A stretch of DNA of 64,000 nt, from contig CAWEPZ010000009.1 in assembly GCA_963811105.1 (NCBI GenBank), positions 361,911-425,910 on the forward strand, read 5' to 3'. Below are positions 33,155 through 49,062 of the stretch, piece by piece. This DNA comes from Candidatus Bathyarchaeota archaeon (GTDB lineage: Archaea; Thermoproteota; Bathyarchaeia; Bathyarchaeales; Bathycorpusculaceae). Both the position numbers and the translations under genes were made by a program. The stretch's first letter is position 1. Each line of letters begins with the position of its first letter. Below the pieces are notes generated by a model, which saw nothing but the letters and a program-made list of their open reading frames with translations, was not told where the DNA came from and ran no database searches.

Positions 33155-33760
33155 TTAAGTTAACTCGACCAAAATCTTTTCTTCAGCTTCTTTTGTTTTT
33201 TCTTCAAGCATTCTCTTCAATTCATAAACGGCTACAGTGTGAAGCAAAGCTACCTCAGTGTTTGAATTATCCTTCTCGATTAAAACTTGAAGGGGGCTAC
33301 TCTTTTCTTCCAAGTTTTCGTTCATATCGAAAGATAAACTCTTTATTCTGTCGATAGCTGTCTCGAACAAAACCCTATTTGGCTTTTTCCTAAACAAGAA
33401 CAACCTTTGGTTTGTAAGGTAAAGATAACCTGATCTCCAGACACCTGAATTAAACTTGTCTCGGCAATAGTGTGAACCAAATGTCTTTAGAATAATTTCT
33501 TCATTCTCATTTAACGGAGCTTCTTCATTACTTTCCGCTAATACGGATTTTCGAATCTGCTCATCCCATGTTCCCATCATGCCGTAATCAACCATCGTTG
33601 TCAACCCAGCGATCGCGGCTTTCAAATTGATTCCAATTAAAGGAACTCCAGAAACCGAAATTATGACATCTGCATGAAGAATTACGCCTTTGACCAAGAT
33701 TCTGTCAACAAGATCTACAAGAGCTCCATCTCTTGAAGGCAACAAATTAGTCTTCTCCAA
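33155..33760 (-). CDS. gvpM: GvpA/J/M-family gas vesicle protein (GvpM-like) fused to a GRAM/PH-like domain
   Basis: LVDLVDRILVKGVILHADVIISVSGVPLIGINLKAAIAG N-terminus; C-terminal GYLYLTNQRLFLF typical of GRAM/PH folds. Confidence 0.8.
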   Translation of the reverse strand: MEKTNLLPSRDGALVDLVDRILVKGVILHADVIISVSGVPLIGINLKAAIAGLTTMVDYGMMGTWDEQIRKSVLAESNEEAPLNENEEIILKTFGSHYCRDKFNSGVWRSGYLYLTNQRLFLFRKKPNRVLFETAIDRIKSLSFDMNENLEEKSSPLQVLIEKDNSNTEVALLHTVAVYELKRMLEEKTKEAEEKILVELT

Positions 33761-35673
33761 AATCAGCTTCTAGCAAAATAACAGTTTCTCTTAAGTTGCA
33801 GAACTCTTCAGTAACGCGTTCATATGGCGCTTCTTCAAGATTTTTTACCGAAGCTTGAAGTTTTTTCTTTTTCTCGTTCGAAAACTTTTCACCTAATTTA
33901 TCTTCCAATGCGGAAAGTAACATCTTTGCTTGACTTACTTTTTTCAACTTTGTACTCAACCCCTCCTTAAGTTCGAGAAGCTTACTACTAAGCTCTCGGA
34001 CTGTTTGGAGCTCATGGTCGTTCATTGCCTCATTTAATCGGTTCAGCGCCATTTCAACCTGCCTCCTGTCTTTGTTTGAAATTTTTCCATTAGTCTCTTC
34101 CAAGAATTTTTGTGTTGCGTAGATTGTAAAAGTTGCTCGATTTTGGTTTTCTATTAATTCCTTTTTTATCTCATCTTCTTCGATAAACTTGGTTGCTTCC
34201 ATAATCCTTCTCATGAGTTCTTCCTGAGAAAGACTCTTAGTATCTGCCACTTTGGCAACTTCTAGTTTTCCTGTTTCTAAAATTTCCGCAGAAACAGTTA
34301 AAATACCGTTAGCGTCAATTTCGAACGTCACTTCCACTTTCTGTTCATATTTAGGTGCCTTAGGAATACCCTCAAGCTTAAACAAACCTATGGACGTGTT
34401 ATCCTTAGCCATCTCCCGATCACCTTGTAAAACATTAATCATCATAGATGTCTGGTCATCCTCTTGCGTTGCGAAAGTCATGTTTTCCTCTGTCGGAATA
34501 GTACTGTTTCGTTTGATTAGACGCGTAAATAATCCGCCAGAAGTTTCTACACCCAAAGACAGCGGTGTGACATCTAACAACAACATATCTCTAATTTCGC
34601 CATTCAAAATACTGGCTTGAACGCCAGCACCTGTAGCGACTATACCCATGGGGTCTATACCTATTTCTGGTTCCTTTTTAAAATAACTTCTAAAATATTC
34701 TCTAACACATGGAATTCGGGTGGGTCCACCTACTAAAATTAGATTATCTATATCTTCGAGATCCAAACCGGAGTCTTCTAAGGCTTGCTCCATGGGACCT
34801 TTCAGCCTATCAAGTTGAGGTTTGATTAATTCTTCAAGCTTATCCCGAGTTAAAGTTATGAACAAACTTGTTATGGAGTCGTTTACATTAACCTCCGTTT
34901 TTGCTGTTGTCCATAATTCAGTTGAAAGTTGAATCTTTGCCATTTCGCCAGCATCTCTTAGTTTGTTCAAGTTCCTACAGTCATTTTCTAAGCGAACTTT
35001 GTACTTTCTTTCAACTTCTTCAATCAAGATAATCTAAAATAGCATCATCCATGTCTTTGCCACCCAGATGAATATCTCCGCTAGTGGACATGACTTGGAA
35101 TAAACCATTTTTCATATGCAGAATAGTCACGTCGAAAGTTCCAGCGCCTAAGTCCAACACAGCCACATTTAGGTTTCTTCCTGCCTTGCCTAAACCGTAA
35201 GCTAGAGAAGCAGCTGTGGGTTCACTGACTACTCTTAAAACTTCAAAACCCGCTATTTCTCCAGCTTCCTTAGTAGCGTTTCTTTGATTATTATTAAAGT
35301 AGGCGGGCGCAGAGATTACTGCCTTGTCTATTTTCTCTCCTAAATAAGTTTCAGCGTCTCTTTTTATCTTCTTGAGTATCAAAGCCGAGATTTGTTGAGG
35401 ACTATAAACCGTGCCATCAATATTTTCAACATGATCTGTACCAATTTTTCTTTTGATCCACCTTATCGCTCGCTCAGGGTGCTCATACGAGTAGTTTTTT
35501 GCAGGTTTACCAACGAGGATTTCACCATCTTCTTTAAATGCAACAATAGAAGGGAACATTTTTCCGTTAGGAGTTGGATCTTCTGCAGCAGGGACAAGTC
35601 TTATTTTTCCATCTTTCATAACAGCGGCAGCTGAGTTAGACGTCCCAAGATCTATTCCAATGGTTCTAATCAT
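33747..35673 (-). pseudogene. dnaK: DnaK/Hsp70, split by a +1 frameshift near 35025 (ORFs 35020-35673 and 33747-35027)
   Basis: GIDLGTSNS, PAYFNNNQR, EPTAA, DLGAGTFD in ORF1; LVGGPTRIP, LLDVTPLSLG, FEIDANGIL in ORF2; junction TAT-C-TTG-ATT-GAA. Confidence 0.9.
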
Positions 35674-35689
35674 AATGATCCCTTGAAGA

Positions 35690-36673
35690 TTATTTAGCCG
35701 CCTTTTCTTCAATTACTATATTTTCTTCGACATCTGTTTTCGTAATTGAGCAAAGGTAATGTTCACAGTATTTAGTCAGCAGAGCTTGTGCTTCCCTTAT
35801 TTTCTTGAACATCTTTTCGCAGGATGGGTCATCTGGGTGAAGGTCAGGATGGTATCGACGTGCTAGACTGTTGTATGCCATGTTAATTTCAGAAATACTT
35901 ACTTCTTGACTTAGACCCATGGTTTTTCTCGCTTCCTCCAATGAATCAAAATTTATCTTTTTTACACCTATTTTTGCAAAATTGTATGCCGGCAAGGGAC
36001 CGACGGAAATAAACTTCAGGTAATTAACGTGTTTTTTCTCTAACTCATTCAGTTTATCATAAAAATCCTGTTCTCGACTTTTATCAATAAGGAAAGCAGC
36101 ATCCAAGAGTGTTTCTTGATCAATTATTTTGTTTTCTTCTGAATCTACTGATAAGCTCTTCAGAGTGCGTGCAATACCTTCCAAGTATTCAATTTTTCTT
36201 TGATCCAGTTCAGCCTTGACTCTTTTCCCTAGCTCAATTTTGTGTGACTGATTAGCGTTTTCTTTGTTTTCGTTGACTAGTTTTCGGATTTCTGCATTTT
36301 GGTTTAAAATGTTTAAGAGCATACCTTTATCCCATGAAATTTTGACGTTAATTTGTAATTTGTGGTCGACCTTTTCCATAGTTTTTTTAAGCTTCATTCG
36401 ACCATGTTTGAGAATGTTCCTTATCTCTTCATCGTCTTTGGCTATAGCTCCAAATCTCATTGGAATAACTGTATGAGGTTCCATGATTTTCCGTAAAACA
36501 TCATCATGAATTCTCGCCTCTGCTCTCCCAATACAACAATTCTCGCCGATGTCGCTGACTATAACACCCATGTCTTCAAATTGAACACTGTATATTTCCC
36601 CATTATCCATTCCAATTCTGCCGAAGCTTTTTTGGCAATCAGAGTTGATGATTCCGTAAATGTATTTGGGCAT
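35690..36673 (-). CDS. GvpL/GvpF-family protein fused to a C-terminal J domain
   Basis: YIYGI, TVIPMRFG, GPLPAYNF (GvpL/F), then MGL...EINMAYNSLARRYHPD...FKKIREAQ (J domain with HPD). Confidence 0.9.
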   Translation of the reverse strand: MPKYIYGIINSDCQKSFGRIGMDNGEIYSVQFEDMGVIVSDIGENCCIGRAEARIHDDVLRKIMEPHTVIPMRFGAIAKDDEEIRNILKHGRMKLKKTMEKVDHKLQINVKISWDKGMLLNILNQNAEIRKLVNENKENANQSHKIELGKRVKAELDQRKIEYLEGIARTLKSLSVDSEENKIIDQETLLDAAFLIDKSREQDFYDKLNELEKKHVNYLKFISVGPLPAYNFAKIGVKKINFDSLEEARKTMGLSQEVSISEINMAYNSLARRYHPDLHPDDPSCEKMFKKIREAQALLTKYCEHYLCSITKTDVEENIVIEEKAAK

Positions 36674-36679
36674 TCATTC

Positions 36680-37489
36680 TCACCGGGTTCCTTTTATTTT
36701 TGATTCGCTTAACTGGCCTGCAAAAGAATATGGTGGCCAAGGTCCAGTGAACCTAACGACAAATCCTTCATTCTTCAAATGTCCTAGCGTATTTCCTAAG
36801 CTCTTAATTTTTTCTTGTTGTGCAAGACAAGTTACGTTAAGAACCATTTGTTTGCCTTGCCATTTCCCATGAACTTCCCGGTTTATTGAACCAAGTTTTA
36901 TTTCCTCAACAAGCTTCTCGATTTGAGCGTACAAATTTCTTGCATGTCTATCTATGAAAAGCTGTTTTTCAAGTTGTATTTCTTTTTCTAACTTTTTCTC
37001 AATCAGATAAGCAGCGCCCCTACTTGTGCTCTCTATTTTCTTTTTTAAACTCTGGATTTCTAACTTGTTATTTAGAGTTTCATCAATCAGGCCGTTTTCG
37101 AGGAAAATCTGAACACCATACTCGGCTTTTCCCTTAAGTTTCATTAGCAAAGTTTTGAGCTGAAAGTATTCTTTGCTGAGCCACTCTTTGAGCGTTTCGT
37201 CGTCTCCTTTGAAAATCGTGTCAAAAGTTAGAGGAATAACAGTTCCATATTCCTCAGTAGCCAGGTCAATCACAAATTGATGCGCCAAAATCCATTCTCC
37301 GGCTTTCTCTTTTGATGTCGTTACATAAGGCTTTGTCTCACACGAATGGATGACTACTCCTATATCTTGGAAAGTTACAACACTAACATAGCTATCTTCA
37401 ACGCCGACTTGTCCAAAATTCTTCTTATTTGCACTATTGATTATACAGTATAGGTATCTTCCTTCTCTGCACCTATTTTCTTGAATCAT
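36680..37489 (-). CDS. gvpL: GvpL/GvpF-family gas vesicle protein
   Basis: GRYLYCI, TVIPLTFDTIF, EYGVQIF, TGPWPPYSF; follows gvpK. Confidence 0.9.
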   Translation of the reverse strand: MIQENRCREGRYLYCIINSANKKNFGQVGVEDSYVSVVTFQDIGVVIHSCETKPYVTTSKEKAGEWILAHQFVIDLATEEYGTVIPLTFDTIFKGDDETLKEWLSKEYFQLKTLLMKLKGKAEYGVQIFLENGLIDETLNNKLEIQSLKKKIESTSRGAAYLIEKKLEKEIQLEKQLFIDRHARNLYAQIEKLVEEIKLGSINREVHGKWQGKQMVLNVTCLAQQEKIKSLGNTLGHLKNEGFVVRFTGPWPPYSFAGQLSESKIKGTR

Positions 37490-37808
37490 TCAAGTCACCG
37501 TTATTGTTTATATTTTCAGGATTAGTCATGACTTCAACTGTGTCTTCAACTAGTCTGTCAAGGTCAGTTCGTAAAGATTTAACAATAGATTGGAGGCCAT
37601 TTTCATCTATTATATGTTTGAGGGCTCCATCAAGCTCTCTTAGGCCATTTCCTAATCTTTCAATCTCCTCGTCGCTCAGTTTACCAGACTCCATTCTCCG
37701 CACAGCTTCTTTTTCAAGAACCTCTTGAATAATTTCAACTAAAGCAACAATTACTCCGATGAGACCCGATTTTAGGTCACTTTCATTAATTTCTATAGGC
37801 ATTGTCAT
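37473..37808 (-). CDS. gvpK: Gas vesicle protein GvpK
   Basis: GLIGVIVALVEIIQEVLEKEAVRRMESGKLSDEEIERLG. Confidence 0.93.
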   Translation of the reverse strand: MTMPIEINESDLKSGLIGVIVALVEIIQEVLEKEAVRRMESGKLSDEEIERLGNGLRELDGALKHIIDENGLQSIVKSLRTDLDRLVEDTVEVMTNPENINNNGDLNDSRK

Positions 37809-38328
37809 TTCCTCTTTTGATTAATTTTACTTCTAAAACACCGTTGTTGATTGTTTTGCTAATTTTCTCTTCAACAAGGCAAGGGAGAGGGACTTCTTTG
37901 TAGTATTCTTGCCCCGATATTATTAGATGAGAATCTGCTATTGTTACTTGGATGGTTTCTTCTTTTGAAGGCAACATCGTTACAACTCTTAAGAGGATTT
38001 TTTCATCTATTACATCTACCAACTCATCGTTATGAGTTATACCTACCAACTCTTCGTCTGCCCACCAACTAAATAAAATTTTTTTGCCATTAGAAGAATC
38101 GATTTTTGATCGTTGGAAAGTGGCAATGGGTTTTCCAATGACTTCTTGCGCTTTTGGGTTTATGATTTCCCTAATTTTAATAAGCACTTCCATATCCGAA
38201 GAGGCGCAAATCAGGTTTGTTAATTGCTTTATCCCTGCATGACGCTCTTTTATAAGATATATTGTTATATGCCTGCTTTTCTCGTCTAAAGTGTTAAGGA
38301 GCAGATCAAGTTTGTTCAGCGTACTCAA
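37786..38328 (-). CDS. Hsp20/alpha-crystallin-domain protein (GvpH-like) with N-terminal extension
   Basis: C-terminal VDVIDE...YYKEVPLP...INNGVLEVKL; lies between gvpJ and gvpK. Confidence 0.75.
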   Translation of the reverse strand: MSTLNKLDLLLNTLDEKSRHITIYLIKERHAGIKQLTNLICASSDMEVLIKIREIINPKAQEVIGKPIATFQRSKIDSSNGKKILFSWWADEELVGITHNDELVDVIDEKILLRVVTMLPSKEETIQVTIADSHLIISGQEYYKEVPLPCLVEEKISKTINNGVLEVKLIKRGNDNAYRN

Positions 38329-38720
38329 CTGCGAACACCCACCTTAGATGCAACTTTTAATCCTTTTTGTTTCTTAGCTCTTGCGCTCTCCCATCCGCAC
38401 CAAGGGCAAGCAAAATCCAACAATTCTTGCCTGTTAACCTGTTTGGAACATTGAGGGCAATCTTCTTTTTGTATTGAAGCGTCTTTCCAAGCAGCTGTTT
38501 CCAAATTGGTTCCTAATGGAAATTCTAGCCCGTATTTCGCAGCGGTTTCAAAAGAGGCAAGTGCAGCTCTGATTTTTATTCCTAGCAGCTCAACTCCAGC
38601 AACGCTAATAACTATGTCTGCGTTGATTACTAGTCCTTTATCTAGGATTCTATCTATAGCGTCCGCCAATCCTGAATGTTCTTTTTCGGGAGTTAAAGTA
38701 ATGCTATCCAAGTTTTTCAT
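38325..38720 (-). CDS. gvpJ: Gas vesicle protein GvpJ with C-terminal Zn-ribbon
   Basis: LADAIDRILDKGLVINADIVISVAGVELLGIKIRAALASFETAAKYGLEFP; CPQC...CPWC. Confidence 0.92.
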   Translation of the reverse strand: MKNLDSITLTPEKEHSGLADAIDRILDKGLVINADIVISVAGVELLGIKIRAALASFETAAKYGLEFPLGTNLETAAWKDASIQKEDCPQCSKQVNRQELLDFACPWCGWESARAKKQKGLKVASKVGVRS

Positions 38721-39040
38721 TCCTTATTTTGTCCATATATCCAACCACACCAAGGGCACTCGCTTTTGAATTCTTCTTGAGTGGATTCTCGGTCGCAAAT
38801 TGGACAAGCGTGCTTTGCGGCTAAAATTCTCCATGATGCTGTGTTCAAATTAGTGTTTTCAGGAAATTTCAAACCTATTTGCTTAGCCGTTTTAAATGAT
38901 GAAAGGACGATACGTGATTTAGTGTCCAAAAGATCAATGTTGCTAAAACGAATCCTCGCATTTGAGTCAACTGTAACGCCCTTATCCATTATTACGTCTA
39001 ATACGCTGTTCAGAGTAGCATTTCGGGTTCTATTTGTCAT
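38717..39040 (-). CDS. Divergent GvpJ paralogue with C-terminal Zn-ribbon
   Basis: LNSVLDVIMDKG...SFKTAKQIGLKFP; CPIC...CPWC. Likely start is the ATG at 39040 after an AGGAGG SD. Confidence 0.82.
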   Translation of the reverse strand: MTNRTRNATLNSVLDVIMDKGVTVDSNARIRFSNIDLLDTKSRIVLSSFKTAKQIGLKFPENTNLNTASWRILAAKHACPICDRESTQEEFKSECPWCGWIYGQNKE

Positions 39041-39195
39041 CAATGAGAGATGCCTCCTTGAGATTGATTGATGCCCCATTCATTTGAAAATGTAGTTAAG
39101 GCTGTCAATTTAGTCGCCTCGCGAAAACATTTTAAGACTTGTTGATAAGAGTGCCTTTTTCTGTTTATCTTTCATTACATTTTGCTCCTTTAAAT

Positions 39196-39486
39196 TCAAC
39201 CTAATATGTTCATCCTCTGGCTGGGGCCCACTGTAAATAATCGTTTGTTCATCAATCGTTGATGGCAAAGCGTTTTGTCGCGCGTTTCGTATTCTTCTTT
39301 TGTTATTTCGCCCAGTTCAAAGAGTAGTCTGTTTTCTCTTAATCCATCGTTAATTCTCTTCTGATTTTCCTTAAATCTTCCCTCATCAGCGTAATCCATG
39401 ATTGTTTCCATAAGCCAGATCATATCAAATGGAGGAAAGGAAAGACCAATCATTTCTAAAAAAAGGTCGTCTACAAAAAATGGCAT
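39196..39486 (-). CDS. gvpG: Gas vesicle protein GvpG
   Basis: FFVDDL N-terminus and ENRLLFELGEITKEEYE; follows gvpF. Confidence 0.85.
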   Translation of the reverse strand: MPFFVDDLFLEMIGLSFPPFDMIWLMETIMDYADEGRFKENQKRINDGLRENRLLFELGEITKEEYETRDKTLCHQRLMNKRLFTVGPSQRMNILG

Positions 39487-40151
39487 TAGATTGCACCATT
39501 TCTTTTCTTAACTTCTACACCATCTGTGCCAATTCTAATGTACACAAAGTTATGGGGCGCCCAAGGTCCGCTATAGAGGAACTTTAAAGTTTGATACTTG
39601 TTTTTAAGTCTAACAACCTCATTCGAAAATGATTCTATTTGTTCTTTGCCGACTAAGAAGGAGGCATTCAAAATGAGTCTTCCACTAAATAAGTCGCATG
39701 CAACTGCTTGTTTTGCTTTGGCTTTCAATGATTCTAAGATTTCTGAGGCGTACTCCTTTTTCTCGTAGGTATTGGCAAAAAGGTTTTTTTCAATTTGAAC
39801 AACCTTTACTCCGAGTTCAACTGTGTTTTCAACAAGCTTTAGCGACTCCACTGTGGAATTATAGGCTTTTTTGAGCAAACGTTTTAGGATTATTTCGTTT
39901 TTTATTGTTGTTCCGAATTCGGTTGGAACAACAGAGTACTTTTTCATGATTTCTTGCATGACGTTCTCATGTTTCGTTGTATTGTCTTCAGTTAACTCGT
40001 AATCTTTCATTGGAGAATCACTAACTACTGCTGCAATGTCTCGGCATAAAATGGTGTAGACTTCGTTATTTTCCAAGCCTACCCTACCGAAATTCTTTTT
40101 TTCACTACAATTTATTGCACAATAGAAGTATTTTCCGTCTTCTGTTTTCAT
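39486..40151 (-). CDS. gvpF: Gas vesicle protein GvpF
   Basis: GKYFYC, AAVVS, SVVPTEFG, ELGVKV, LNASFLV, SGPWAPHNFV. Confidence 0.9.
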   Translation of the reverse strand: MKTEDGKYFYCAINCSEKKNFGRVGLENNEVYTILCRDIAAVVSDSPMKDYELTEDNTTKHENVMQEIMKKYSVVPTEFGTTIKNEIILKRLLKKAYNSTVESLKLVENTVELGVKVVQIEKNLFANTYEKKEYASEILESLKAKAKQAVACDLFSGRLILNASFLVGKEQIESFSNEVVRLKNKYQTLKFLYSGPWAPHNFVYIRIGTDGVEVKKRNGAI

Positions 40152-40169
40152 TTGTTTACCCTCTAAATG

Positions 40170-40997
40170 CTAAATTTCCAGTTGTAAGTAGTGGTTTAGA
40201 GCTTTGTGAGCTTGAATATGCTCGTAAACCATGCTTCTTATTCTCGGTTTAGCGTCTTCTACTGGACCGTAGACTATTTCCTTGCCTGATTTCGTGATTT
40301 TCAATAGTCCTTTTTGTTTCAAAGAATGAAGAAGCGGGTATATAGTTCCTGGACTAAGTAAAACGTTGAACCTCAAATGAATGGTTCCTATTATTTCGGT
40401 GCCGCACATCATTTGTTTTTGTAGAATAGACAAAATTAGATTTTCCAAGTTATCTTTCACTATTTTTTCAACGGATTTACCCGATACCCTCGAGTCATCG
40501 AAGAAATCTCCAGATAATATTGTCAGGTCATTTGTTGTTAGGCGAAGTTGATTGTGATATAAGGCTAATTGTTTAATTTTTTCAAAACTGAATCGTGATA
40601 GGTCGTAGGTACATAGACAGTTTATAGAGCGTTTTTTGCTCAATTCGTTCAGATAGTTTTCTCTTTTCTCGATTTCAGCTTCTTCTTGATTGTCTAACGA
40701 TCCTGCATCTACAATAAGTTGCAGATCATTACTTTCCTTTTCGAAACTGTAAATATCACGTGGATTGACAATTTCTAGTTGAATGTTTGGGTGATTGAAT
40801 TCTTGTGCCAGGGATGAGCTATCGACATTGGTAACGTAGATTATTTTTTGATTTTGTCGAGTTGCTGGTATTAAGAACGCGTTTTGAATCGTGTATTTAT
40901 CAACATTTGGAGCATACAGGTGGAGTGTATGGTTTGAGGTTCTTTTGTCCATGCTCGAAAATTGCTTGGAAGAATTGAAAAGGGAAGCTGTTTCCAT
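40170..40997 (-). CDS. MEDS-like sensory domain fused to a PadR/GvpE-like wHTH regulator
   Basis: N-terminal HTLHLY...IIYV...LCTYD...H pattern (MEDS-like); C-terminal CGTEII...LSPGTIYPLLH. Confidence 0.78.
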   Translation of the reverse strand: METASLFNSSKQFSSMDKRTSNHTLHLYAPNVDKYTIQNAFLIPATRQNQKIIYVTNVDSSSLAQEFNHPNIQLEIVNPRDIYSFEKESNDLQLIVDAGSLDNQEEAEIEKRENYLNELSKKRSINCLCTYDLSRFSFEKIKQLALYHNQLRLTTNDLTILSGDFFDDSRVSGKSVEKIVKDNLENLILSILQKQMMCGTEIIGTIHLRFNVLLSPGTIYPLLHSLKQKGLLKITKSGKEIVYGPVEDAKPRIRSMVYEHIQAHKALNHYLQLEI

Positions 40998-41025
40998 AGT
41001 TGTTTCCTTCGTAGTTAGTGCATTT

Positions 41026-41307: not shown

Positions 41308-41321
41308 TTTTTTTATCCCCT

Positions 41322-42395
41322 TTAGATAGATTCTTGAGTTTGGCAGACGTTGACTTCTGGAATTATTAAATCGATGCCGTTCTTCTGAATTTTCGAGTGA
41401 GTATCGTTTAGAATTTCTCTTATGACGTCTGTTTTGTTAAGAGTCTCAATTTGGTTACCGATTTTACTTGCGAGAACATCTATGCAAATTTGTAAAAATT
41501 CCTCTCTTGAATAATTGCCCATCGCTTTAAGACCTTTAGAAATCATTATTTCGGCTCGCGTACCTGGTTTGTGTTGTTCGGGCAGTTTTTCTCTTAGTGT
41601 ACGAACAATTTTGACAATGTTTTTTGCCTCAAGGGGTGATATATTAGAATGCGCTACAACAATCTTTACTTCTGTGTCAAAGTCATAATAGTCCATGTGG
41701 AGATCTATCATTCTGTCTAGTAAAGCATCTTGAGGTCTATGTACACCAGCATATTCGATAGAGTTGCTTGTGAATATTACCTTAAAATCAGGATGAACTT
41801 GTACGTATCTTTCTTCTCCAAACATAGTCGGAAGTTCTAATATGTGTTCTTCGAGTACTGATAGAAGAACGTTGTTAGCCTCGGGTTTTGATCTTGAGAA
41901 CTCGTTATAAATTAATGTGTAACCGTATTTGCAAGCGAGCGTTAACGGATTGTCAATCCAGCTATATTTTGTCTTATTCTTGGTTAATCTGACGTTATGA
42001 ATATATTTGTCCACTAGACTTTCGGCCTCCATTTCTGAGTATCCTCCGATTAAGTCTGACGTTGTTATCTGATCATCACCGTTTATCCACACTGTTGGTC
42101 TGCCCAATTCTTTTGCTACTTGCATCGCCATTGTTGTTTTTCCACAACCTGTTGGCCCAACGATGTGGGGGTGGCATGCAGCTTTAAGCCAGAGTCTAAT
42201 TCTGTTCTTTAGTTTTCTAACCTGTTCGGTTTCAATAAAACTTTCAATCGTAGGGATTAAGAACTCTGTTTCTGCTTTATTTATTGTGATTTCTAAGGGT
42301 GTTATTTTCTCGGAAATTTTGATTTTCCTTTCTTTTGATGTTTCATGAACTCTTTTTCCGCGAACAACTCTTGGATGAGTTGGATAATATTTCAT
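41322..42395 (-). CDS. gvpN: Gas vesicle AAA+ ATPase GvpN
   Basis: GPTGCGKT, YIHNV, WIDNPLTLAC, YNEFSRSKPEANNVLLSVLEE, EYAGVH..QDALLDR. Confidence 0.95.
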   Translation of the reverse strand: MKYYPTHPRVVRGKRVHETSKERKIKISEKITPLEITINKAETEFLIPTIESFIETEQVRKLKNRIRLWLKAACHPHIVGPTGCGKTTMAMQVAKELGRPTVWINGDDQITTSDLIGGYSEMEAESLVDKYIHNVRLTKNKTKYSWIDNPLTLACKYGYTLIYNEFSRSKPEANNVLLSVLEEHILELPTMFGEERYVQVHPDFKVIFTSNSIEYAGVHRPQDALLDRMIDLHMDYYDFDTEVKIVVAHSNISPLEAKNIVKIVRTLREKLPEQHKPGTRAEIMISKGLKAMGNYSREEFLQICIDVLASKIGNQIETLNKTDVIREILNDTHSKIQKNGIDLIIPEVNVCQTQESI

Positions 42396-42613
42396 GTTTT
42401 TAAGTCCTCGGTATTTTTCTTATATACACGAATGTTGCGACAATCCTTTTAAGGTGTATTCAGATACGTGTTACGAAAACTGTGTCAAAAATCGAAAGTC
42501 GACTCAAAAACTATTTTAATTCGATTTCAGAATAATTTTGTAAACAATTTCAATCAAAAATTTTCCTTGAATAATAATAAATTGGAATTGGGAAAAGAGG
42601 GTTCCTCAAACTC

Positions 42614-42766
42614 TCAAGTTTTTTCCTTTTTGAGGGCGTTTACCCATAACATACGTACTCTCTGTGGACGCGGAACTACCGAACAATATTGTACCATTTC
42701 TCTATGTTTTCTTAACCACTTTATTTTCTTATCCCTTTCTTGTGCGTTAACAGCGCTTTTTGGCAT
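42614..42766 (-). CDS. Small basic hypothetical protein between gvpC and gvpN
   Basis: 50 aa Lys/Arg-rich ORF (MPKSAVNAQERDKK...); GGGGGTGA SD-like sequence upstream. Confidence 0.45.
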   Translation of the reverse strand: MPKSAVNAQERDKKIKWLRKHREMVQYCSVVPRPQRVRMLWVNALKKEKT

Positions 42767-42880
42767 TTTTGACACCAATTCACCCCCTAGTTGGATCACT
42801 TTCCCGATTGATTATTCTCAATTAATACTGAAAAAAAGAAATATGGACAAGAAACAGTTTATTCTACAGATGAGGCGCAC

Positions 42881-43252
42881 TCATCCGTAGAATTGTTTCG
42901 TGTATTCTTGGTGTTGTTTTACTTGATCAGCTATACTGACTTGCATGGCAGCAATACCTGAAACCATTTCAGCGACACCAGATTGCAGATTTCGTGTACC
43001 ATCAGCGTGCATTTTTTTGGCGGCTTCTTGGAAGTTTATAGCGGTTTGATGGATACTTTTCTGCATCTCACAAACTCCTGTTAACAGATTGTTGATTCCT
43101 TCGATACGCATTTCATTGGCAGCTTCTTGGAAGTTTATAGCGGTTTGATGATAAAGTTTTCTTTTGCCATTAACGGTATTTGTATTTGTTGCTGGTGTTT
43201 TGGTTGGTTCAGTTACTGGGCCTGTTTGATTTTTCGTTTTATGTTTAGACAT
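42881..43252 (-). CDS. gvpC: GvpC-like protein with two 33-residue repeats
   Basis: Directly downstream of gvpA; HQTAINFQEAA repeated at 33-aa spacing; C-terminal FYG as in haloarchaeal GvpC repeats. Confidence 0.7.
   Translation of the reverse strand: MSKHKTKNQTGPVTEPTKTPATNTNTVNGKRKLYHQTAINFQEAANEMRIEGINNLLTGVCEMQKSIHQTAINFQEAAKKMHADGTRNLQSGVAEMVSGIAAMQVSIADQVKQHQEYTKQFYG
43023..43150. repeat. Exact 29-bp direct repeat at 99-bp spacing inside the gvpC-like gene
   Basis: gcttcttggaagtttatagcggtttgatg at 43023-43051 and 43122-43150. Confidence 0.95.
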
Positions 43253-43303
43253 TTATTTTTCAACTCAAACTTGTTTATTCTTTAAACTATTTTTTTCCTA
43301 GAT

Positions 43304-43531
43304 TTAGGCTGCTGGAACAGGAGCAGCGATTGCTGCTTGCTCGACCTTTGTGATTTCTTCTGCGTAATGGAGGAATGTATCGACTGAGGCGACTACCACT
43401 CTGGCTTCGATTGTGAGAATTTCGATTCCAACCAATGAAGCCCTTGCCCAAGCATCGACGACTATGCCTTTGTCGAGTACGCGATCGAGTACTTCTGCCA
43501 AACTACCTGAATCTGGACTTTGTTGCACCAT
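43304..43531 (-). CDS. gvpA: Major gas vesicle structural protein GvpA
   Basis: [51 protein letters not shown]; ATG at 43531 with GAGGTGA SD (75 aa). Confidence 0.98.
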
Positions 43532-43590
43532 TTTTAATTCACCTCTCAAGACATGGATTTGTTTTCTGTATCTTGAGTATGATATATTGC

Positions 43591-43597
43591 TATTTAA
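43591..43597 (-). promoter_or_regulatory. Candidate TATA box of the gvpA operon
   Basis: TTAAATA on the minus strand about 60 bp upstream of the gvpA start. Confidence 0.45.
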
Positions 43598-43812
43598 GCA
43601 GTATTCAGCAATAAAGAACAAGGATCGTATCGAGAATCGATACTTGAAATATTACAATTTGCACAACAATCCCATAACTAAAGTAAGACCTAAATTATCT
43701 CACACACAATTAAAACTTAAAAAGTGACCAGAATTAAGTGCTTTAATAAAGAACATTTGGAAAATAGATTTAACCATCTAAAATTTGATACAATAATAGA
43801 AAGTGAATAATT

Positions 43813-44379
43813 GTGTGGCTAATATGTCGGGTAGCATTCAATAGGGGCAAAACCAAATTGCTAGTCCGGGGTACCCAAGATGCAGAATGGGTTTTTTGCC
43901 CAAGGACAAAAAGCATAAAAAACGACAAAGTAACCATCCAATGTTGCGACGAATGTGCCCATTTTGTTCGTCTTGAACACTTCTCTCTCCCGCAAACACA
44001 GGCTTGGAAACGCAGCATCATGCCAAAACATCCCAACTACCTACATTTTAGAAAACCGCCGATCAATCGCTGGAGTTCTAAACGACAAACAATATTGGCA
44101 CCATCCCATTCAATGTTAAGCTTTAGAGTCGAAAAGCAACCACTATTAGACGTCTTTGAAGAGGATGACTGTGTAGTAGTTTTAGCAGAATTGCCGGGTA
44201 TGGAAGAAAAAGATGTAAATATCGAAGCCGACGAAACTACTGTGACAATTACTGCGAAAAACTCAGTTAGGACCTATCTAAAGAAGATAAAACTTCCAAC
44301 GCCAATTCTAAGTAGTGAGGTGGAGATCATTTATAGGAACAACATTTTGCAGGCAAAGTTAAAAAAACTTAAAGATTAA
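43813..44379 (+). CDS. Hsp20-domain protein with Cys-rich N-terminus
   Basis: C-terminal PLLDVFEE..VVVLAELPG...YRNNILQAKL; N-terminal FCPR...CCDECAHF. Confidence 0.8.
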   Translation: MWLICRVAFNRGKTKLLVRGTQDAEWVFCPRTKSIKNDKVTIQCCDECAHFVRLEHFSLPQTQAWKRSIMPKHPNYLHFRKPPINRWSSKRQTILAPSHSMLSFRVEKQPLLDVFEEDDCVVVLAELPGMEEKDVNIEADETTVTITAKNSVRTYLKKIKLPTPILSSEVEIIYRNNILQAKLKKLKD

Positions 44380-44427
44380 CCCCAAAAGTTGCTTTTTAGG
44401 CTCTCCCAAAAATGTAAACGTCGTGAG

Positions 44428-45039
44428 CTATTCCTTACGTGTCGGTTGTAGTTCTCTTGAAAGTTGATTTACGACTTCAATGAGTTTATGTAAACCTGAT
44501 TCTATATCTCCTTTTGATACATGTAATATGATTTGTGATGTTTCTTTCCTTAGCATCGCCATTTGATGGCATATTTCGCAGCTCTTTTTTCCTTTTTCGA
44601 AGTCTGTGCATGCCAAAAGTAAATCAACTGCTTCAATTAGTTCTCGTGCTTTGTTTGCTTTGGTCACTATGTCTAAGGCTTGATTTATTTGTTCATTGAG
44701 CTGCTTAATTGTTTGTTCTATTTTGACATACGTAGGGCAAATCGTTATCTGGGGTTGTTTGTTGACCTTAAAACCTCTTGGATCTATAGCTACTTCTATA
44801 CCCACAGTATGGCAGATTCTGTAGTATTTTCTTGCCGCACCAATAGGGCTTTTTTTCTTGAAACTTTCTATAAGACCAGCTTCTTCGAGTATGCTGAGGT
44901 TTTTAAGGATGGCTGGCTGCGTGATCTCCAATCTTTTGGCTATTTCAGATATGTAGCGTGGCTCTTGAGAGAGTAAGGTAAGTATTTTTCGGCGAGTTTC
45001 GTTTCCGACAATTTGGAGAATTTTGCCTGCAGGTTCCAT
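44428..45039 (-). CDS. Phr/HSR1-like archaeal heat-shock regulator (ArsR-type wHTH)
   Basis: GNETRRKILTLL...YISEIA...ILEEAGLIES...RKYYRI plus coiled coil, matching the Phr/HSR1 pattern; sits between hsp20 and cdc48. Confidence 0.82.
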   Translation of the reverse strand: MEPAGKILQIVGNETRRKILTLLSQEPRYISEIAKRLEITQPAILKNLSILEEAGLIESFKKKSPIGAARKYYRICHTVGIEVAIDPRGFKVNKQPQITICPTYVKIEQTIKQLNEQINQALDIVTKANKARELIEAVDLLLACTDFEKGKKSCEICHQMAMLRKETSQIILHVSKGDIESGLHKLIEVVNQLSRELQPTRKE

Positions 45040-45090
45040 GAATGACCTTCTTCCTTCTTCACTGGGAATGTAACAAAACGTATATATACA

Positions 45091-45112
45091 TTTAGTTAAT
45101 AACTAAAAGTTA
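45091..45112. promoter_or_regulatory. Putative heat-shock regulator operator
   Basis: TAAC-N5-GTTA at 45100-45112 overlapping a perfect IR TTTAGTTA-a-TAACTAAA (45091-45107); TATATATA at 45081-45088. Confidence 0.65.
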
Positions 45113-45143
45113 AGCATACTAAAATGAGCAAAGGTAAGCATTC

Positions 45144-47333
45144 GTGTCAGAATCTGCTCCAACCTCAAATTCGATAACACTGCGCGTTTCTGAAGCCTCA
45201 CTAAGAGACTTCGGTCGAGGAATAGCAAGAATAGATCCCCAAGCAATGAAGGAAATTCAAGCTCAAACAGGCGACATCATCCAAATCACCGGAAAAAAAA
45301 GAACCGCCGTAAAAGTTATGCCCTCTTACCCAGAAAACCGGGGAAAAAACGTTGCTCAAATCGATGGAATAATACGTAATAATGCTTTAATTGGAATCGG
45401 CGACACGGTCTGTGTAGAAAAAATTAAGGCTGAAACTGCAGAAAAAATAACGCTTGCACCACTCGAGCACGACCAGTCATGGCGAGGAGGAGACAAACCC
45501 TTAGAACATGTACGTAATCTTCTAGATGGCTTAGCGGTGGTTGAAGGAGATCAGGTCCGACTAAGCCTTTTAGGGTCAAACGCCTCCTTTGTTGTAGCCA
45601 GAATCAAACCAAACTGTCCAGTAGCTATACTTCACTCTACAACGGAGATAGTTATACTTGAAAAACCAGCACAAAACGGAAGAAAAATTGGCGCCACATA
45701 TGATGATATCGGGGGGTTATCTGAGCAGATTCAGCGGACGAGAGAAATGATTGAACTTCCTCTTCGGCATCCAGAAGTGTTTGATCGCCTTGGAATAGAA
45801 CCGCCAAAAGGGGTCTTACTACATGGCCCTCCAGGCACAGGAAAAACTCTTATTGCAAAAGCTGTAGCAAACGAAACTTTCGCTACTTTCATCAGCATCA
45901 GCGGTGGAGAAATACATGGAAAGTACTACGGTGAATCTGAAGCCCGCTTAAGAGAGATATTTACCGAGGCATCTCAGAACAAACCTTGTATCATATTTAT
46001 TGATGAGATCGACGCAATAGCCCCAAAAAGAGAAGAAGTCACAGGTGAAGTCGAAAAAAGAGTAGTGTCCCAATTGTTATCGTTGATGGACGGGCTAGAA
46101 CCACGCGGACAAGTAGTGGTTATTGGGGCAACAAATAGACCCAACGCAATTGACCCTGCTCTGCGGAGAGGCGGACGGTTTGACCGAGAAATAGAGATAG
46201 GTATGCCAACAAGAGAAGGGCGGTTTGATATTTTCCAGATTCATACTCGAGGCATGCCGCTTACTTCTGACGTAGATTTAACGAATCTGTCTTCATTAAC
46301 ACACGGCTTTACAGGTGCAGACATTACAGAGCTCTGTAAAGAAGCAGCCATGAAGTCTCTAAGACGAGTTTTGCCGGAAATAAACTTTGAAGCTGAATTT
46401 ATTGCCACAGACATCCTTAACAAACTGGTAGTAACGATGGATGATTTTCAGGACGCATTGCGGTTTGTTGAACCCTCAGCTTTACGAGAGGTTTTAATTG
46501 AAACACCTAATGTCACATGGGAGAACATAGGTGGACTCCATGAACTAAAACAAGAACTTATCGAAGCTATTGAATGGCCTCTAAAATACGCTGACATTTT
46601 TAAAGAAGCTGGAGCAAAACCGCCCAAGGGAATAGTTCTTTGTGGACCTCCAGGCACAGGGAAGACTCTTTTAGCGAAAGCGGTTGCCAAAGTAAGTCAA
46701 GCAAACTTTATCCACGTCAAAGGTCCAGCGCTTATGAATAAATTTGTTGGTGAATCAGAGAAGGGTGTAAGAGAAATATTTCGGAAAGCTAAACAAACAG
46801 CGCCATGTATCATTTTCTTCGATGAAATAGATGCCTTGGTTCCTAAGCGAGGAAGCGGATTAACTGATGCTCACACCTCGGAAAGGGTCATAAGTCAATT
46901 TCTTACAGAATTGGATGGGCTAGAGGAACTTCGCGGCGTTATGGTTCTAGCAGCGACAAATCGTATTGACATAATTGATCCTGCTTTACTGAGACCTGGA
47001 CGGTTCGACCTTATTCTACAAGTTCCGCCCCCAGATGCTGATGCAAGGCTCGAAATTTTCAAGATACATAGCGCAAAGAATCCTCTAGCAAATGATATCT
47101 CCTTTGAGAAATTGGCTGAAGAAACAAAAAGCTGTACCGGAGCTGACATAGACGCAATCTGCCGAGAAGCTACTATGTTTGCTATCAGACGTTTTCTTAA
47201 CAAAAATACGACAGATTTAACCAACTTAAAACCGACTAAACTTGAAGTAACAATGGAAGATATGATAATAGCAATCAAACAGATGAACAATCGTAAAAAA
47301 TTGATTGAACGCTCAGGAGCAGAAGCTGACTGA
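45144..47333 (+). CDS. cdc48: CDC48/VAT/p97-family AAA+ ATPase
   Basis: N-domain ([10 protein letters not shown]), two AAA modules each with GPPGTGKT, Walker B DEID and arginine finger ([13 protein letters not shown]). Confidence 0.97.
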
Positions 47334-48307
47334 TGAAAAAATCGTTTTTATTAGAAACTGAAGATGCAAGCAGCCAAAATAACCTCTCTAAATCAATGCA
47401 AGAGCGGATTAATCAAGTCCTCGGAGATGTCCATTTGAGAATGGTTGAGTTGTTCAATGTTGATTTCACTTTTTTTAAAAGCTTTAAATTGTTGAGGCGT
47501 CAAGAATTTCAAAATCAATTGGCCCAACGGATACAAGACGATCTAAAAGAAAGTGGTATAGAAAGCAGCGGTACTCAATTGGGACAAATTACTCAAGTTC
47601 TTGCGCGAGATCAAGCGGCTGGCGTATCTGAACATTTTGCTTTTTATAATCTCAAAAATGATAACCTGTATTTAAACGAAGACATGGCCATAAATTACCC
47701 GGAAAAAGTGGTTTCGGTGTGTGCCCACGAACTTGCCGAAAAACTTCTTTCAACTTGCATATCCTTGCCGCCAAATTCGTCAATGCGATCTGCTGTGAAG
47801 CTATATCTCGAAGTAAAGAACATTAGTGATCCCGAAAGGCTTCAGCAGATTTTAGATATATATTTTGAGACTATTTTCAAGGCTGTCTTTAAAGAGGGTG
47901 CTTGTGAGGCAATAGCAGTTCACGTTATGCGTAACATGAATTATGCGACTGAAGCAGCTATTTTAGAAGAAGAATTGAAGGAAGGTTATACAAAATGTTC
48001 AGGGCTCTTATCACGTATTGAAAATATAAGAAAAACCGTGATGACATCGAAGGTTATCCAACTGGACAGTAAAGTGTTGGATGAACAAGTAATAGTTGAG
48101 GAAGTTCTGAAGAACTCGCAGATAATTAAAGGTGTTTCGTACTATTTGGGCTATCCGCTTGCAAGAGTAGTTCTAGAAAAATATGGACTTTATGGTATGC
48201 GTTTTATCGTAGAGAACGCTTTGCCGCTCAAAGCGGAATATTTCTCAAATCCAGAATCCTACCTTGTCACATTAGATAAGATACTTTCTAAACAAATGGA
48301 GAAATAA
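47333..48307 (+). CDS. Hypothetical zincin-like protein (HExxE variant)
   Basis: AHELAE, downstream EGACE and YYLGY; translationally coupled to cdc48. Confidence 0.6.
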   Translation: MKKSFLLETEDASSQNNLSKSMQERINQVLGDVHLRMVELFNVDFTFFKSFKLLRRQEFQNQLAQRIQDDLKESGIESSGTQLGQITQVLARDQAAGVSEHFAFYNLKNDNLYLNEDMAINYPEKVVSVCAHELAEKLLSTCISLPPNSSMRSAVKLYLEVKNISDPERLQQILDIYFETIFKAVFKEGACEAIAVHVMRNMNYATEAAILEEELKEGYTKCSGLLSRIENIRKTVMTSKVIQLDSKVLDEQVIVEEVLKNSQIIKGVSYYLGYPLARVVLEKYGLYGMRFIVENALPLKAEYFSNPESYLVTLDKILSKQMEK

Positions 48308-48312
48308 AACAG

Positions 48313-49062
48313 ATGGTTAAAAAAGAAAAAAACGGAAATACTTCAGGAGAAAAAACCATTGGAGCGTTAAAAAAGGAAGTCGCAAAGAAAGGAAAAGAAA
48401 TTGAGGAGCTACAAAAATCCGTAGCCGAGATGCGAACTCAAATTCAGAAAAAAGATAAAATTGTGGACCCTCCTGAACCAGATAAAATGGTCGACGGGCT
48501 CATGAACGTCGGTTTTGGGTTACTTGGCTCGTCAAATGCTGCAAATGGTCAAAAGGCCAAAGGTTTGCTGGGTTTAGTCGACGAGTTAGGTAAGTTGGCG
48601 GAGAAAACCCAGATGACTCAGACAACGCAGAAGAGAATTAATTTTGGAAAAGGAGGCGTAGTTGACTTTCGAGTAAGTTCCCGACCAATAAAAGGTGGTT
48701 CCTCACTTCAACCTGCGAGTCGATCGAAAATCGGAACACTTATCAAACAATCCTCAAGCACATATGCCCCCATGCCACTTGCAGCAGGAACCATAAAAGA
48801 AAGAGAACTTATCGTTGACATCTTTGAAGAAGAAGATTGCCTCCATGTAATGGTGGAACTGCCTAATGTCAAAGAAAACGAAATATCCCTAGACGTAGAA
48901 GGCAATACTCTAACAATAAAAGCTGGCACTCAGAATAAAGAATACTTCAAGAAAGTTGAGCTCCCTGCTACTGTCGAAAAAAAAATAGTTGAATCAAGTT
49001 GCCGCAATGGAATCCTTGAAGTTAGGCTAAAAAAGAAAACCATTGCCAATCAGACCAAGTAG
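48313..49062 (+). CDS. Coiled-coil + Hsp20/alpha-crystallin-domain protein (GvpH-like)
   Basis: N-terminal coiled coil; VDIFEEE..VMVELPNV...YFKKVELP...RNGILEVRLKK. Confidence 0.85.
   Translation: MVKKEKNGNTSGEKTIGALKKEVAKKGKEIEELQKSVAEMRTQIQKKDKIVDPPEPDKMVDGLMNVGFGLLGSSNAANGQKAKGLLGLVDELGKLAEKTQMTQTTQKRINFGKGGVVDFRVSSRPIKGGSSLQPASRSKIGTLIKQSSSTYAPMPLAAGTIKERELIVDIFEEEDCLHVMVELPNVKENEISLDVEGNTLTIKAGTQNKEYFKKVELPATVEKKIVESSCRNGILEVRLKKKTIANQTK

Follow-up and report, generated by a model that had tools for sequence, protein, structure and literature searches.

A gas vesicle gene cluster with embedded chaperone genes in a genome of the Bathyarchaeia

Introduction

Why should a gas vesicle locus carry its own chaperone genes? 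The question is raised by a stretch of 64,000 nucleotides (hereafter the window), the final 64 kb of the 425,910-base contig CAWEPZ010000009.1 (positions 361,911 to 425,910; assembly GCA_963811105.1, Candidatus Bathyarchaeota archaeon), in which gas vesicle (gvp) genes are interleaved with genes for an Hsp70, a J-domain protein, small heat-shock proteins (sHSPs) and a CDC48-type ATPase. An earlier note, made from the sequence alone, had inferred from this locus a buoyancy organelle with a dedicated assembly and recycling line. Gas vesicle assembly is poorly understood, and a natural cluster with a J-protein, an Hsp70, sHSPs and CDC48 offers a testable idea, namely that a Gvp-derived adaptor recruits general chaperones to shell proteins. 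According to the accessible text of one study, heterologous vesicle production is limited by shell-protein aggregation and proteotoxic stress (PMC12848028).

We consider it likely that the locus is a complete Methanosarcina-type gas vesicle cluster in a member of the Bathyarchaeia, to whose backbone two client-specific proteostasis units have been added. Unit 1, beside gvpM, would pair an Hsp70 paralogue of its own with a GvpL/F paralogue that ends in a J domain. Unit 2, diverging from gvpA, would comprise an sHSP and a Phr-like repressor, the latter probably in control of an operon in which CDC48 is followed by a zincin-like protein and another sHSP.

Gene content of the cluster and comparison with other archaea

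As presented in Table 1, an unbroken row of genes on the minus strand (33155-43531) holds gvpA and representatives of F, G, J, K, L, M, O and N, in the order A-N-O-F-G-J-H-K-L-M with insertions. It is the only gvp cluster in the whole genome. The inventory given by the earlier note (A, a C-like gene, N, O, F, G, two J, K, L/F copies, M-like and H-like) was recovered with every gene where the note had placed it. Family scans also found counterparts of the eight genes essential in haloarchaea (A, O, F, G, J, K, L and M), as well as the three Hsp20 domains, the J-domain fusion and the CDC48 that it had named. GvpA, GvpN, GvpL, GvpG, GvpK, GvpO, CDC48 and the J domain scored above curated cut-offs; among the accessory genes, the second J and the GvpM-specific NCBIfam match fell below theirs.

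Table 1. Features of the gas vesicle locus, in order of position in the window (aa, amino acids).
Feature	Coordinates	Strand	Evidence
PadR-family regulator, 129 aa	31706-32095	-	PF03551 51.5 bits
GvpM-like protein	33155-33760	-	PF00741 48.5 bits; NF046091 (GvpM) 88.6 bits, under cut-off 109
Hsp70 paralogue, C-terminal fragment	33747-35027	-	PF00012 317.6 bits, profile positions 235-591
Hsp70 (DnaK-type) paralogue, N-terminal fragment	35020-35712	-	PF00012 250.1 bits, profile positions 1-234
Third GvpL/F paralogue with C-terminal J domain	35690-36673	-	PF06386 172.6 bits; PF00226 45.5 bits, cut-off 27.8
GvpL	36680-37489	-	NF045778 220.9 bits, cut-off 200; PF06386 195.2 bits
GvpK	37473-37808	-	PF05121 69.5 bits
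Hsp20-domain protein in GvpH position (between J and K)	37786-38328	-	NF041800 E 2.5e-11, residues 95-173
GvpJ	38325-38720	-	PF00741 59.5 bits; NF046090 98.4 bits
Second, more divergent GvpJ/A-fold protein	38717-39079	-	PF00741 23.7 bits, cut-off 25; NF046090 E 1.1e-10
GvpG	39196-39486	-	PF05120 31.7 bits, cut-off 30.6
GvpF	39486-40151	-	PF06386 141.6 bits, two stretches
MEDS-like and PadR-like winged-helix regulator	40170-40997	-	PF03551 31.1 bits; PF14417 26.4 bits, under cut-off 29.8
GvpO	41026-41307	-	PF05800 48.9 bits
GvpN (AAA+ ATPase)	41322-42395	-	TIGR02640 343.4 bits, cut-off 266.8
Small basic protein, 50 aa	42614-42766	-	Shine-Dalgarno-like GGGGGTGA upstream; tblastn conservation
GvpC-like candidate, 123 aa	42881-43252	-	Two 33-residue repeats; directly downstream of gvpA
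gvpA, major shell protein, 75 aa	43304-43531	-	NF006874 130.8 bits (score of the 76-residue translation of 43304-43534), cut-off 100
sHSP (Hsp20 domain), conserved N-terminal extension	43813-44379	+	NF041800 E 7.3e-21; weak PF05455 (GvpH) 16.4 bits
Phr-like (ArsR-type winged-helix) regulator	44428-45039	-	PF01022 54.6 bits; NF053602 87.1 bits, under cut-off 320
TATA-like box and palindrome TTTAGTTAaTAACTAAA (45091-45107)	45083-45110	.	Candidate operator before CDC48
CDC48/VCP-type double AAA+ ATPase	45144-47333	+	TIGR01243 973.6 bits, cut-off 802.65
Zincin-like fold protein, 324 aa	47333-48307	+	No family; AlphaFold2 model and VIA-align
sHSP, C-terminal Hsp20 domain, coiled-coil-like N-terminus	48313-49062	+	PF00011 40.2 bits, cut-off 20.8; NF041800 E 1.6e-24

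Outside the Bathyarchaeia, the nearest GvpN proteins came from Methanocellales-labelled (60% identity), Nano/Woesearchaeota (52-55%) and Methanosarcina (47-55%) sequences. The genes run A, N, O, F, G, J, K, L, M in Methanosarcina clusters and in those labelled Woese/Nanoarchaeota; Methanosarcina has an Hsp20 gene in addition, there too between J and K. The cluster of M. barkeri is given as gvpAAA-NOFG-JHKLM (Table 1 of PMC9501494, from the accessible part of that article). The window shares with Methanosarcina this backbone order (A, N, O, F, G, J, Hsp20/H-like, K, L, M), the long form of GvpM that includes a C-terminal domain (34-36% identical over ~180 aa) and a nearby MEDS-like regulator. 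In Bathyarchaeia and Woese/Nanoarchaeota-labelled clusters the gene of this regulator (the MEDS-like gene of DPANN-labelled loci) is kept in the interval from gvpO to gvpF, whereas the Methanosarcina loci have a shorter match upstream of gvpA on the other strand. By contrast, the GvpL/F-J fusion and an Hsp70 between gvpL and gvpM were absent from all the Methanosarcina and DPANN clusters examined, and two Methanosarcina loci lacked the Phr-like/CDC48/zincin-like unit, the C-like repeat protein and the 50-aa open reading frame (ORF). Since the compared clusters have no fusion, no L-M Hsp70 and no 50-aa ORF, the Bathyarchaeia cluster can be described as a Methanosarcina-type backbone with additions.

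In comparison with the vac region of Halobacterium salinarum (gvpACNO and gvpDEFGHIJKLM), all eight essential genes (A, F, G, J, K, L, M and O) have counterparts in the window, and N and an H-like protein are also common to both. A repeat protein follows gvpA, like GvpC there, but has no sequence match to GvpC. GvpD and GvpE are absent from the window cluster, where the MEDS and winged-helix regulator stands in their place; conversely, no Hsp70, J domain or CDC48 has been reported in haloarchaeal clusters.

The start of gvpA was set at the ATG at 43531, which follows a GAGGTGA motif and gives 75 aa; a 105-aa ORF was rejected as over-extended. The protein also matched PF00741 (55 bits, cut-off 25), and the nearest relatives have 75-aa forms with 95-99% identity. 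The over-extended ORF had escaped the earlier note, as had the 50-aa basic ORF on the minus strand (42614-42766), which falls beneath the 60-aa threshold of the ORF list. By tblastn, this small ORF was found in 17 of 26 loci, every one Bathyarchaeia-type, and in none of five Methanocellales, DPANN or Methanosarcina loci; a 140-aa ORF on the plus strand (42468-42890) is its shadow. The two repeats of the GvpC-like candidate (HQTAINFQEAA...) share 20 of 33 residues. The position of this gene is kept in 13 locus entries, one region being counted twice, with lengths of 117-176 aa, and the 123-aa protein gave no match to PF01304 or any other GvpC family at E<=10. The GvpM-like protein joins an N-terminal GvpA-fold domain to a C-terminal PH-like domain: in its AlphaFold2 (AF2) model (predicted local distance difference test, pLDDT, 68), residues 80-200 resembled PH/GRAM/PTB structures in all 50 top VIA-align rows (Z 10-11.7). 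Only part of the relatives have a second GvpJ-like gene. Separately, the C-terminal tail of the first GvpJ (38325-38720, minus strand; residues 82-125) showed a weak resemblance, of zinc-ribbon type, to HypA, PRK14890 and HVO_2753 (E 7e-4 to 3e-3).

Conservation of the chaperone genes with the cluster

A search for gvp genes across Bathyarchaeia genomes, a check proposed by the earlier note, found them (as GvpL/F genes) in 7 of the 401 genomes of the class sample, our genome included, and in two families: its own (this genome and 3 of 103) and another (3 of 71). For comparison we used six fetched regions and 20 loci from a named genome collection, two sets that overlap and are not independent. 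The same core was observed in the six regions and the 20 loci. Nineteen of the latter had a Bathyarchaeia or Bathyarchaeota label, the 2015 genome BA2 among them, and one was labelled Micrarchaeota. A homologue of the PadR-family regulator adjoins the cluster at its GvpM end in 17 of these 20 loci. Large Bathyarchaeia contigs elsewhere hold the same cluster; because of this, and because the window cluster lies inside a 425,910-base contig, a chimera, which the earlier note had named as a possible refutation, is unlikely.

The arrangement of the parts varied between relatives. The gvpM gene stands after the Hsp70 gene or just before the fusion, and the CDC48 unit stands beside gvpA, after gvpM or Hsp70, or after gvpG, yet it stays with gvp. 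The zincin-like protein was found in 4 of the 401 class-sample genomes, all among the seven with gvp genes, and in 3 of the 61 genomes of the genus sample, all gvp-bearing; the Phr-like regulator was full-length in those 3 of the 61 alone, and three other genus-sample genomes gave weak matches to its helix-turn-helix part only. Because the chaperone genes are kept with gvp across two families despite rearrangements, they belong to the locus and are not chance neighbours, as the earlier note had proposed.

Two related loci deserve mention for themselves. A contig labelled Micrarchaeota (L133) carries a Bathyarchaeia-type cluster with a fusion 57% identical to that of the window, an Hsp70, a Phr-like regulator, CDC48 and the zincin-like protein, which could reflect mis-binning or transfer. 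One metagenome-assembled genome (MAG) holds two gvp cluster types on two contigs (L128 and L142), with gvpM after Hsp70 in one and before the fusion in the other; the bin may be mixed, or a single organism may have both.

A GvpL/F-J fusion and the adjacent Hsp70

In all 20 related loci the fusion gene is directly followed by the Hsp70 gene. The HPD tripeptide of the J domain (H275, P276, D277) was invariant in the seven aligned fusions and in 17 of 17 diverse representatives. At NCBI the fusion carries the label 'GvpL/GvpF family gas vesicle protein', in records of Bathyarchaeia, Patescibacteria and Dehalococcoidia. The two Hsp70 fragments of the window jointly cover the nucleotide-binding and substrate-binding parts of PF00012, and their best NCBIfam matches were DnaK models, with HscA among the weaker ones.

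The same contig also carries, at a distance of 300 kb, a canonical housekeeping grpE-dnaK-dnaJ operon. When the housekeeping DnaK of this genome was compared with the gvp-linked Hsp70 of the closest relative (L132), identity was 48% over 522 residues, and the relative's protein differed in its C-terminal lid. In an unrooted, small maximum-likelihood tree, 18 gvp-linked Hsp70 proteins were separated from five housekeeping DnaK proteins of gvp-bearing genomes by a split with 100/100 support. On these comparisons, the gvp-linked Hsp70 is a dedicated paralogue. In the gvp-bearing genome G008 (100% complete, 1.6 Mb), we observed the gvp-linked Hsp70 alone and no housekeeping DnaK at E<=1e-50, and the cluster Hsp70 may be the sole Hsp70 of that organism.

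Client-dedicated pairs of an Hsp70 and a J-protein are known, HscA/HscB being one. The shared logic would be a second Hsp70 paralogue with a J-protein whose non-J part binds one client class; here, however, the best matches are to DnaK models, the J domain is fused to GvpL/F and no Fe-S cluster genes are present. For the client, the accessible parts of two studies on Halobacterium offer a model: GvpF is the single partner to bind monomeric GvpA, GvpL binds GvpJ and GvpM, and GvpH prevents the aggregation of GvpM (PMC9501494, PMC6107691). By analogy with GvpF and GvpL, the GvpL/F part of the fusion would bind a hydrophobic client of the GvpA family (A, J or M), and the J domain would trigger ATP hydrolysis by the partner Hsp70 and so its tight-binding state. 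An aggregation-prone shell or nucleation protein might in this way be kept soluble and passed to the growing vesicle. The fusion would act as the adaptor that brings the client to an Hsp70, a private one in Bathyarchaeia and presumably the general one in Patescibacteria. A complex prediction for the GvpL/F domain of the fusion (residues 1-238) with the GvpM-like protein scored 0.00, which counts neither way.

The earlier note had seen the DnaK gene as part of the operon, which its PF00012 match bears out, but had missed that the frame is split. An extra T at 35026 separates the two ORFs, which overlap at 35020-35027; at the junction the translation reads ...DYLD* / IEEVERK (minus strand ...GAT TAT CTT GAT TGA). 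Logan contigs from three soil-metagenome runs, about 95% alike to the window, were each one base shorter at 35026, which restores D-Y-L-I-E-E-V. The Hsp70 was whole (630-673 aa) in all 18 relatives in which the gene does not run off the contig, and three Hsp70 signature motifs were retained across both fragments of the window; for these two reasons the gene is under selection in the lineage. The frameshift could have arisen in assembly or as a mutation of very recent date, and unit 1 of this genome, as assembled, may not work owing to the interrupted Hsp70.

A different explanation is that the locus is decaying in this organism, the frameshift being real, the dedicated chaperone lost and vesicles poor or none. 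This would agree with the extra T itself, with a window Hsp70 that is the sole broken one beside 18 complete relatives, with three soil runs that all are without the extra base, and with the single gvpA of the window versus two in tandem in the closest relatives. Contigs in two soil runs show a 320-base joint that goes back on itself at 43229-43548, consistent with a gvpA duplication. We nevertheless regard decay as rather unlikely, though it is the strongest of the alternatives. All the other genes of the cluster are open, the signature motifs are kept in both Hsp70 fragments, and the remaining indels listed against the close Logan contigs fall between genes or span three bases (23 more rows lie beyond those listed). 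Moreover, a genome in 15 contigs may have been built from long reads, where single-base indel errors occur, and Methanosarcina clusters work without any Hsp70.

The CDC48 unit diverging from gvpA

The first sHSP gene is divergent from gvpA and adjoins it in relatives too. All three Hsp20 proteins of the locus scored below the NF041800 equivalog cut-off of 140, and PF00011 was above cut-off for the one at 48313-49062 alone. The regulator next to it, single-copy in the genome, had been called a heat-shock regulator; its NF053602 (Phr) match covers residues 5-122 only and stays far under the cut-off, and we call the protein Phr-like. Upstream of CDC48 lies a candidate operator, the palindrome TTTAGTTAaTAACTAAA beside a TATA-like box. 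Its only exact copy in the window is at this promoter, and a similar TATA and palindrome element occupies the same place in all 10 regions of relatives that were compared (one region counted twice), the second family included. Allowing up to 3 mismatches, 3 matches were found in the window versus 0.94 expected, none of them before gvpA or the first Hsp20 gene. The conserved element would fit repression of the CDC48 / zincin-like / second sHSP operon by the Phr-like regulator, which probably controls it through the palindrome.

The CDC48 protein matched CDC48_N, CDC48_2 and two AAA domains. Two further paralogues in the genome share 54-55% identity with it, while gvp-linked orthologues of other genomes reach 67-94%. 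In a CDC48 tree, five Bathyarchaeia and five Patescibacteria gvp-linked copies fell on one side of a branch with 100/99 support. On the other side were five copies from gvp-negative Bathyarchaeia, this genome's two other paralogues and the copy of a Methanocellales-labelled gvp locus. Although unrooted and small, the tree shows the gvp-linked CDC48 as a lineage of its own, shared by archaea and bacteria of the candidate phyla radiation (CPR), that has crossed the domain boundary along with the gvp genes. On that Methanocellales-labelled contig (L168), CDC48 stands directly after gvpO.

The 324-aa protein encoded after CDC48 matched no Pfam or NCBIfam family, and none of its 180 relatives had a Pfam domain, the named ones all being 'hypothetical protein'. 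Its AF2 model, from a 38-sequence alignment, had a pLDDT of 75.6 and a predicted template modelling score (pTM) of 0.80. By VIA-align, the model resembled 3cmn ('putative hydrolase'; Z 13.5, root mean square deviation 4.0, 240 aligned residues), catalytic domains of M1 aminopeptidases (Z 9.5-10.6), thermolysin (8.4) and minigluzincins (~8), Z values under ~13 being possibly a common arrangement in helical proteins. Foldseek against the PDB also placed 3cmn first (E 3e-3), with nothing at E<=0.001, and the Protein Atlas gave leads below 0.9 only (Zincin_2 0.89, DUF5700, Peptidase_M9). Where zincins have HEXXH, the sequence H132-E133-L134-x-E136-K137 was invariant in 38 of 38 sequences; this H-E-L-x-E-K sits on the helix aligned with the zincin active-site helix, and a second invariant stretch reads F-K-E-G-x-C-E. 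The zincin-like call of the earlier note is supported at the level of the predicted fold and not in its motif, and we do not file the protein as a peptidase.

In unit 2, as we picture it, sHSPs would hold misassembled Gvp proteins, CDC48 would unfold them or pull them out of aggregates or collapsed vesicles, with the zincin-like protein as degrader or adaptor.

These genes might instead form an ordinary archaeal heat-shock regulon that sits in the same island as gvp without a role in the vesicle. Pyrococcus Phr controls hsp20 and a gene for an AAA+ ATPase, and Phr is the best named match of the regulator here. Many gvp-negative Bathyarchaeia, of other genera, have a CDC48 at 60-64% identity, and the zincin-like query found nothing in 3 of the 7 gvp-bearing class-sample genomes. 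A gvp-negative single-contig congener (G403, 68-80% DNA identity) is collinear with the window from 14000 to ~29170 and then breaks off, so that the whole stretch of 29-50 kb may be one genomic island. Only the left border of such an island can be placed, at this break near 29.17 kb: a ParA-like gene had matches elsewhere of only ~52%, and in G403 the DUF763 gene lies 37 kb off on the opposite strand. We nonetheless judge the explanation improbable. The unit keeps with gvp although its position changes, and the regulator and the zincin-like protein occur, in the genus sample, in gvp-bearing genomes only. In addition, five CDC48 genes fetched from gvp-negative genomes had no Phr, Hsp20 or zincin-like neighbours within ~5 kb, and Patescibacteria, whose copies fall in the gvp-linked CDC48 clade, have CDC48 and Hsp20 amid their gvp genes.

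Related clusters in bacteria

The fusion is widespread. In a set of 5.8 billion proteins, its family gave 294 matches at E<=1e-5, the best 120 of which all had both Pfam domains. When a fusion profile was scored on 1.84 billion representatives, 590 proteins reached E<=1e-30; among the best 150 of these, 132 were at least 300 aa long with an HPD after residue 230, and both Pfam domains were found in 18 of 18 matches scanned. Most members are nameless; those with names belong to Patescibacteria (Parcubacteria, Falkowbacteria) and to one Dehalococcoidia bacterium.

Eleven Patescibacteria-type loci (L195-L205) had the order A, N, Hsp20, CDC48, fusion, F, G, O, L, K, J. The fusion was present in all 11, by selection, CDC48 in 8 and Hsp20 in 6, and an Hsp70 within 7 kb in none. 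These loci share with the window a GvpL/F-J fusion (30-35% identical), Hsp20 and CDC48 (54-63% identical) inside the gvp genes, and a CDC48 that clusters with that of Bathyarchaeia. They differ in gene order and in having neither the zincin-like protein nor a full-length Phr-like match, and they are bacterial. By gene content, the chaperone-bearing type of gvp cluster is not unique to Bathyarchaeia; the earlier note had cautioned that some bacterial clusters carry chaperone genes, and the caution was apt. A published precedent for embedded chaperone-type and extra ATPase genes is provided by bacterial gvp clusters with Hsp20 and ArsA-like ATPases, for which a chaperone role of Hsp20 was suggested. 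In the accessible part of that article the extra ATPase is ArsA-like, not CDC48 or Hsp70, and no J-domain fusion is mentioned (PMC2963123).

A full-text literature search found no paper on gvp genes in Bathyarchaeia, although supplementary tables of MAG papers, which lie outside such a search, may list them. The same search found none on a J-domain GvpL/F fusion, and none that treats Hsp70 or CDC48 as components of a gvp cluster; in the accessible text of one paper that mentions both gas vesicles and CDC48, the latter appears as a pull-down contaminant only. As far as seen, the genes are already annotated at NCBI but have apparently not been discussed in print. We give even chances to a wider proposal, namely that these clusters represent a widespread, undescribed 'chaperone-assisted' gvp class in uncultured anaerobes (Bathyarchaeia, Patescibacteria, Dehalococcoidia). 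In this class a GvpL/F protein would have gained a J domain to aim Hsp70 at shell proteins, and a vesicle-specific CDC48 lineage with sHSPs would have moved between Archaea and Bacteria together with gvp. Bathyarchaeia would have gone furthest, with a vesicle-dedicated Hsp70 of their own and a new zincin-like partner. If this is true, an Hsp70/J pair and a CDC48 devoted to a protein organelle of prokaryotes would be seen here for the first time, and a ready-made helper set for gas vesicle production in foreign hosts would be at hand.

Host, habitat and weight of the evidence

The assembly has 15 contigs that add up to 3.49 Mb; its completeness is 96.65% and its contamination 4.3%. Among the other products encoded in the window are an archaeal Nop5, an ATP-dependent DNA ligase and TrmB. 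A search with Nop5 gave 80 best loci, 72 of them labelled Bathyarchaeia, Bathyarchaeota or Bathycorpusculum, at 66-91% identity, and several record titles of the closest ones (85-91%) contain bog, palsa or other peat words. By this marker the host genome is one of the Bathyarchaeia, as the earlier note had guessed, and kin to MAGs labelled peat, bog and palsa. The listed sequencing runs with related DNA were labelled soil, peat and freshwater sediment, with at most 0.21 of the sampled words each. The earlier note had spoken of a lineage usually regarded as sediment-dwelling; the labels of peat, bog, palsa, soil and freshwater sediment do not give a picture of marine sediment.

Several points weigh against two units serving the vesicle. 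Gas vesicles of Bathyarchaeia are known from genes alone, and no RNA run was among those listed for 33700-43650. The added units are not obligatory: the Methanosarcina and DPANN clusters do without fusion or Hsp70, and M. barkeri makes vesicles, according to the accessible part of PMC9501494. The frame of Hsp70 is split in this genome. CDC48 has relatives in gvp-negative genomes, the CDC48 of the Methanocellales-labelled gvp locus falls outside the gvp-linked group, and the CDC48 and Hsp70 trees are both unrooted and small. The zincin-like protein has no HEXXH and is missing from part of the gvp-bearing genomes. A common genomic island, and not a common function, could account for the co-occurrence and co-transfer. 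Gene content, conservation, co-occurrence and phylogeny are what we observed; for client binding, chaperone action, vesicle formation and buoyancy we infer from domain content, linkage and the interactions described in haloarchaea.

That the structures would be vesicle-like but serve another purpose than buoyancy, for instance in a stress or desiccation response as discussed for soil actinomycetes, is a poor prospect: it would suit the small shares of related DNA in soil, peat and freshwater sediment runs, where floating is perhaps limited, the peat, bog or palsa in the relatives' record titles and the tight linkage of stress-type genes, but standing water is possible in peat or bog, where flotation would make sense, the nearest clusters outside Bathyarchaeia include those of Methanosarcina, in which vesicles have been observed, and sequence cannot separate buoyancy from other roles. 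Under the reading that we prefer, a gas vesicle cluster with two added proteostasis units, some Bathyarchaeia, which are abundant and almost uncultured, may regulate their position in water-saturated peat or sediment.

Surroundings of the cluster

Scans for tRNA genes and Rfam families across the window gave no matches. Next to the GvpM end of the cluster, 32096-33154 is an AT-rich stretch of 1 kb with no ORF of at least 60 aa, the GC fraction being 0.356 in the 32-34 kb bin. On the other side, 7 kb from the cluster, a transposase is encoded on the minus strand as two overlapping ORFs (56040-57502), DUF772 followed by DDE_Tnp_1_6/DDE_Tnp_1, and may be a frameshifted or programmed-frameshift insertion sequence (IS) element. 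Elsewhere in the window, an anaerobic ribonucleotide reductase, NrdD (17816-20032, plus strand; 738 aa), joins an N-terminal winged helix (HTH_5/DUF7347) and an ATP-cone in a single ORF. The plus-strand gene at 22341-23978 encodes a 545-aa Kelch-repeat beta-propeller with a C-terminal bacterial Ig-like domain, which is unexpected in an archaeon.

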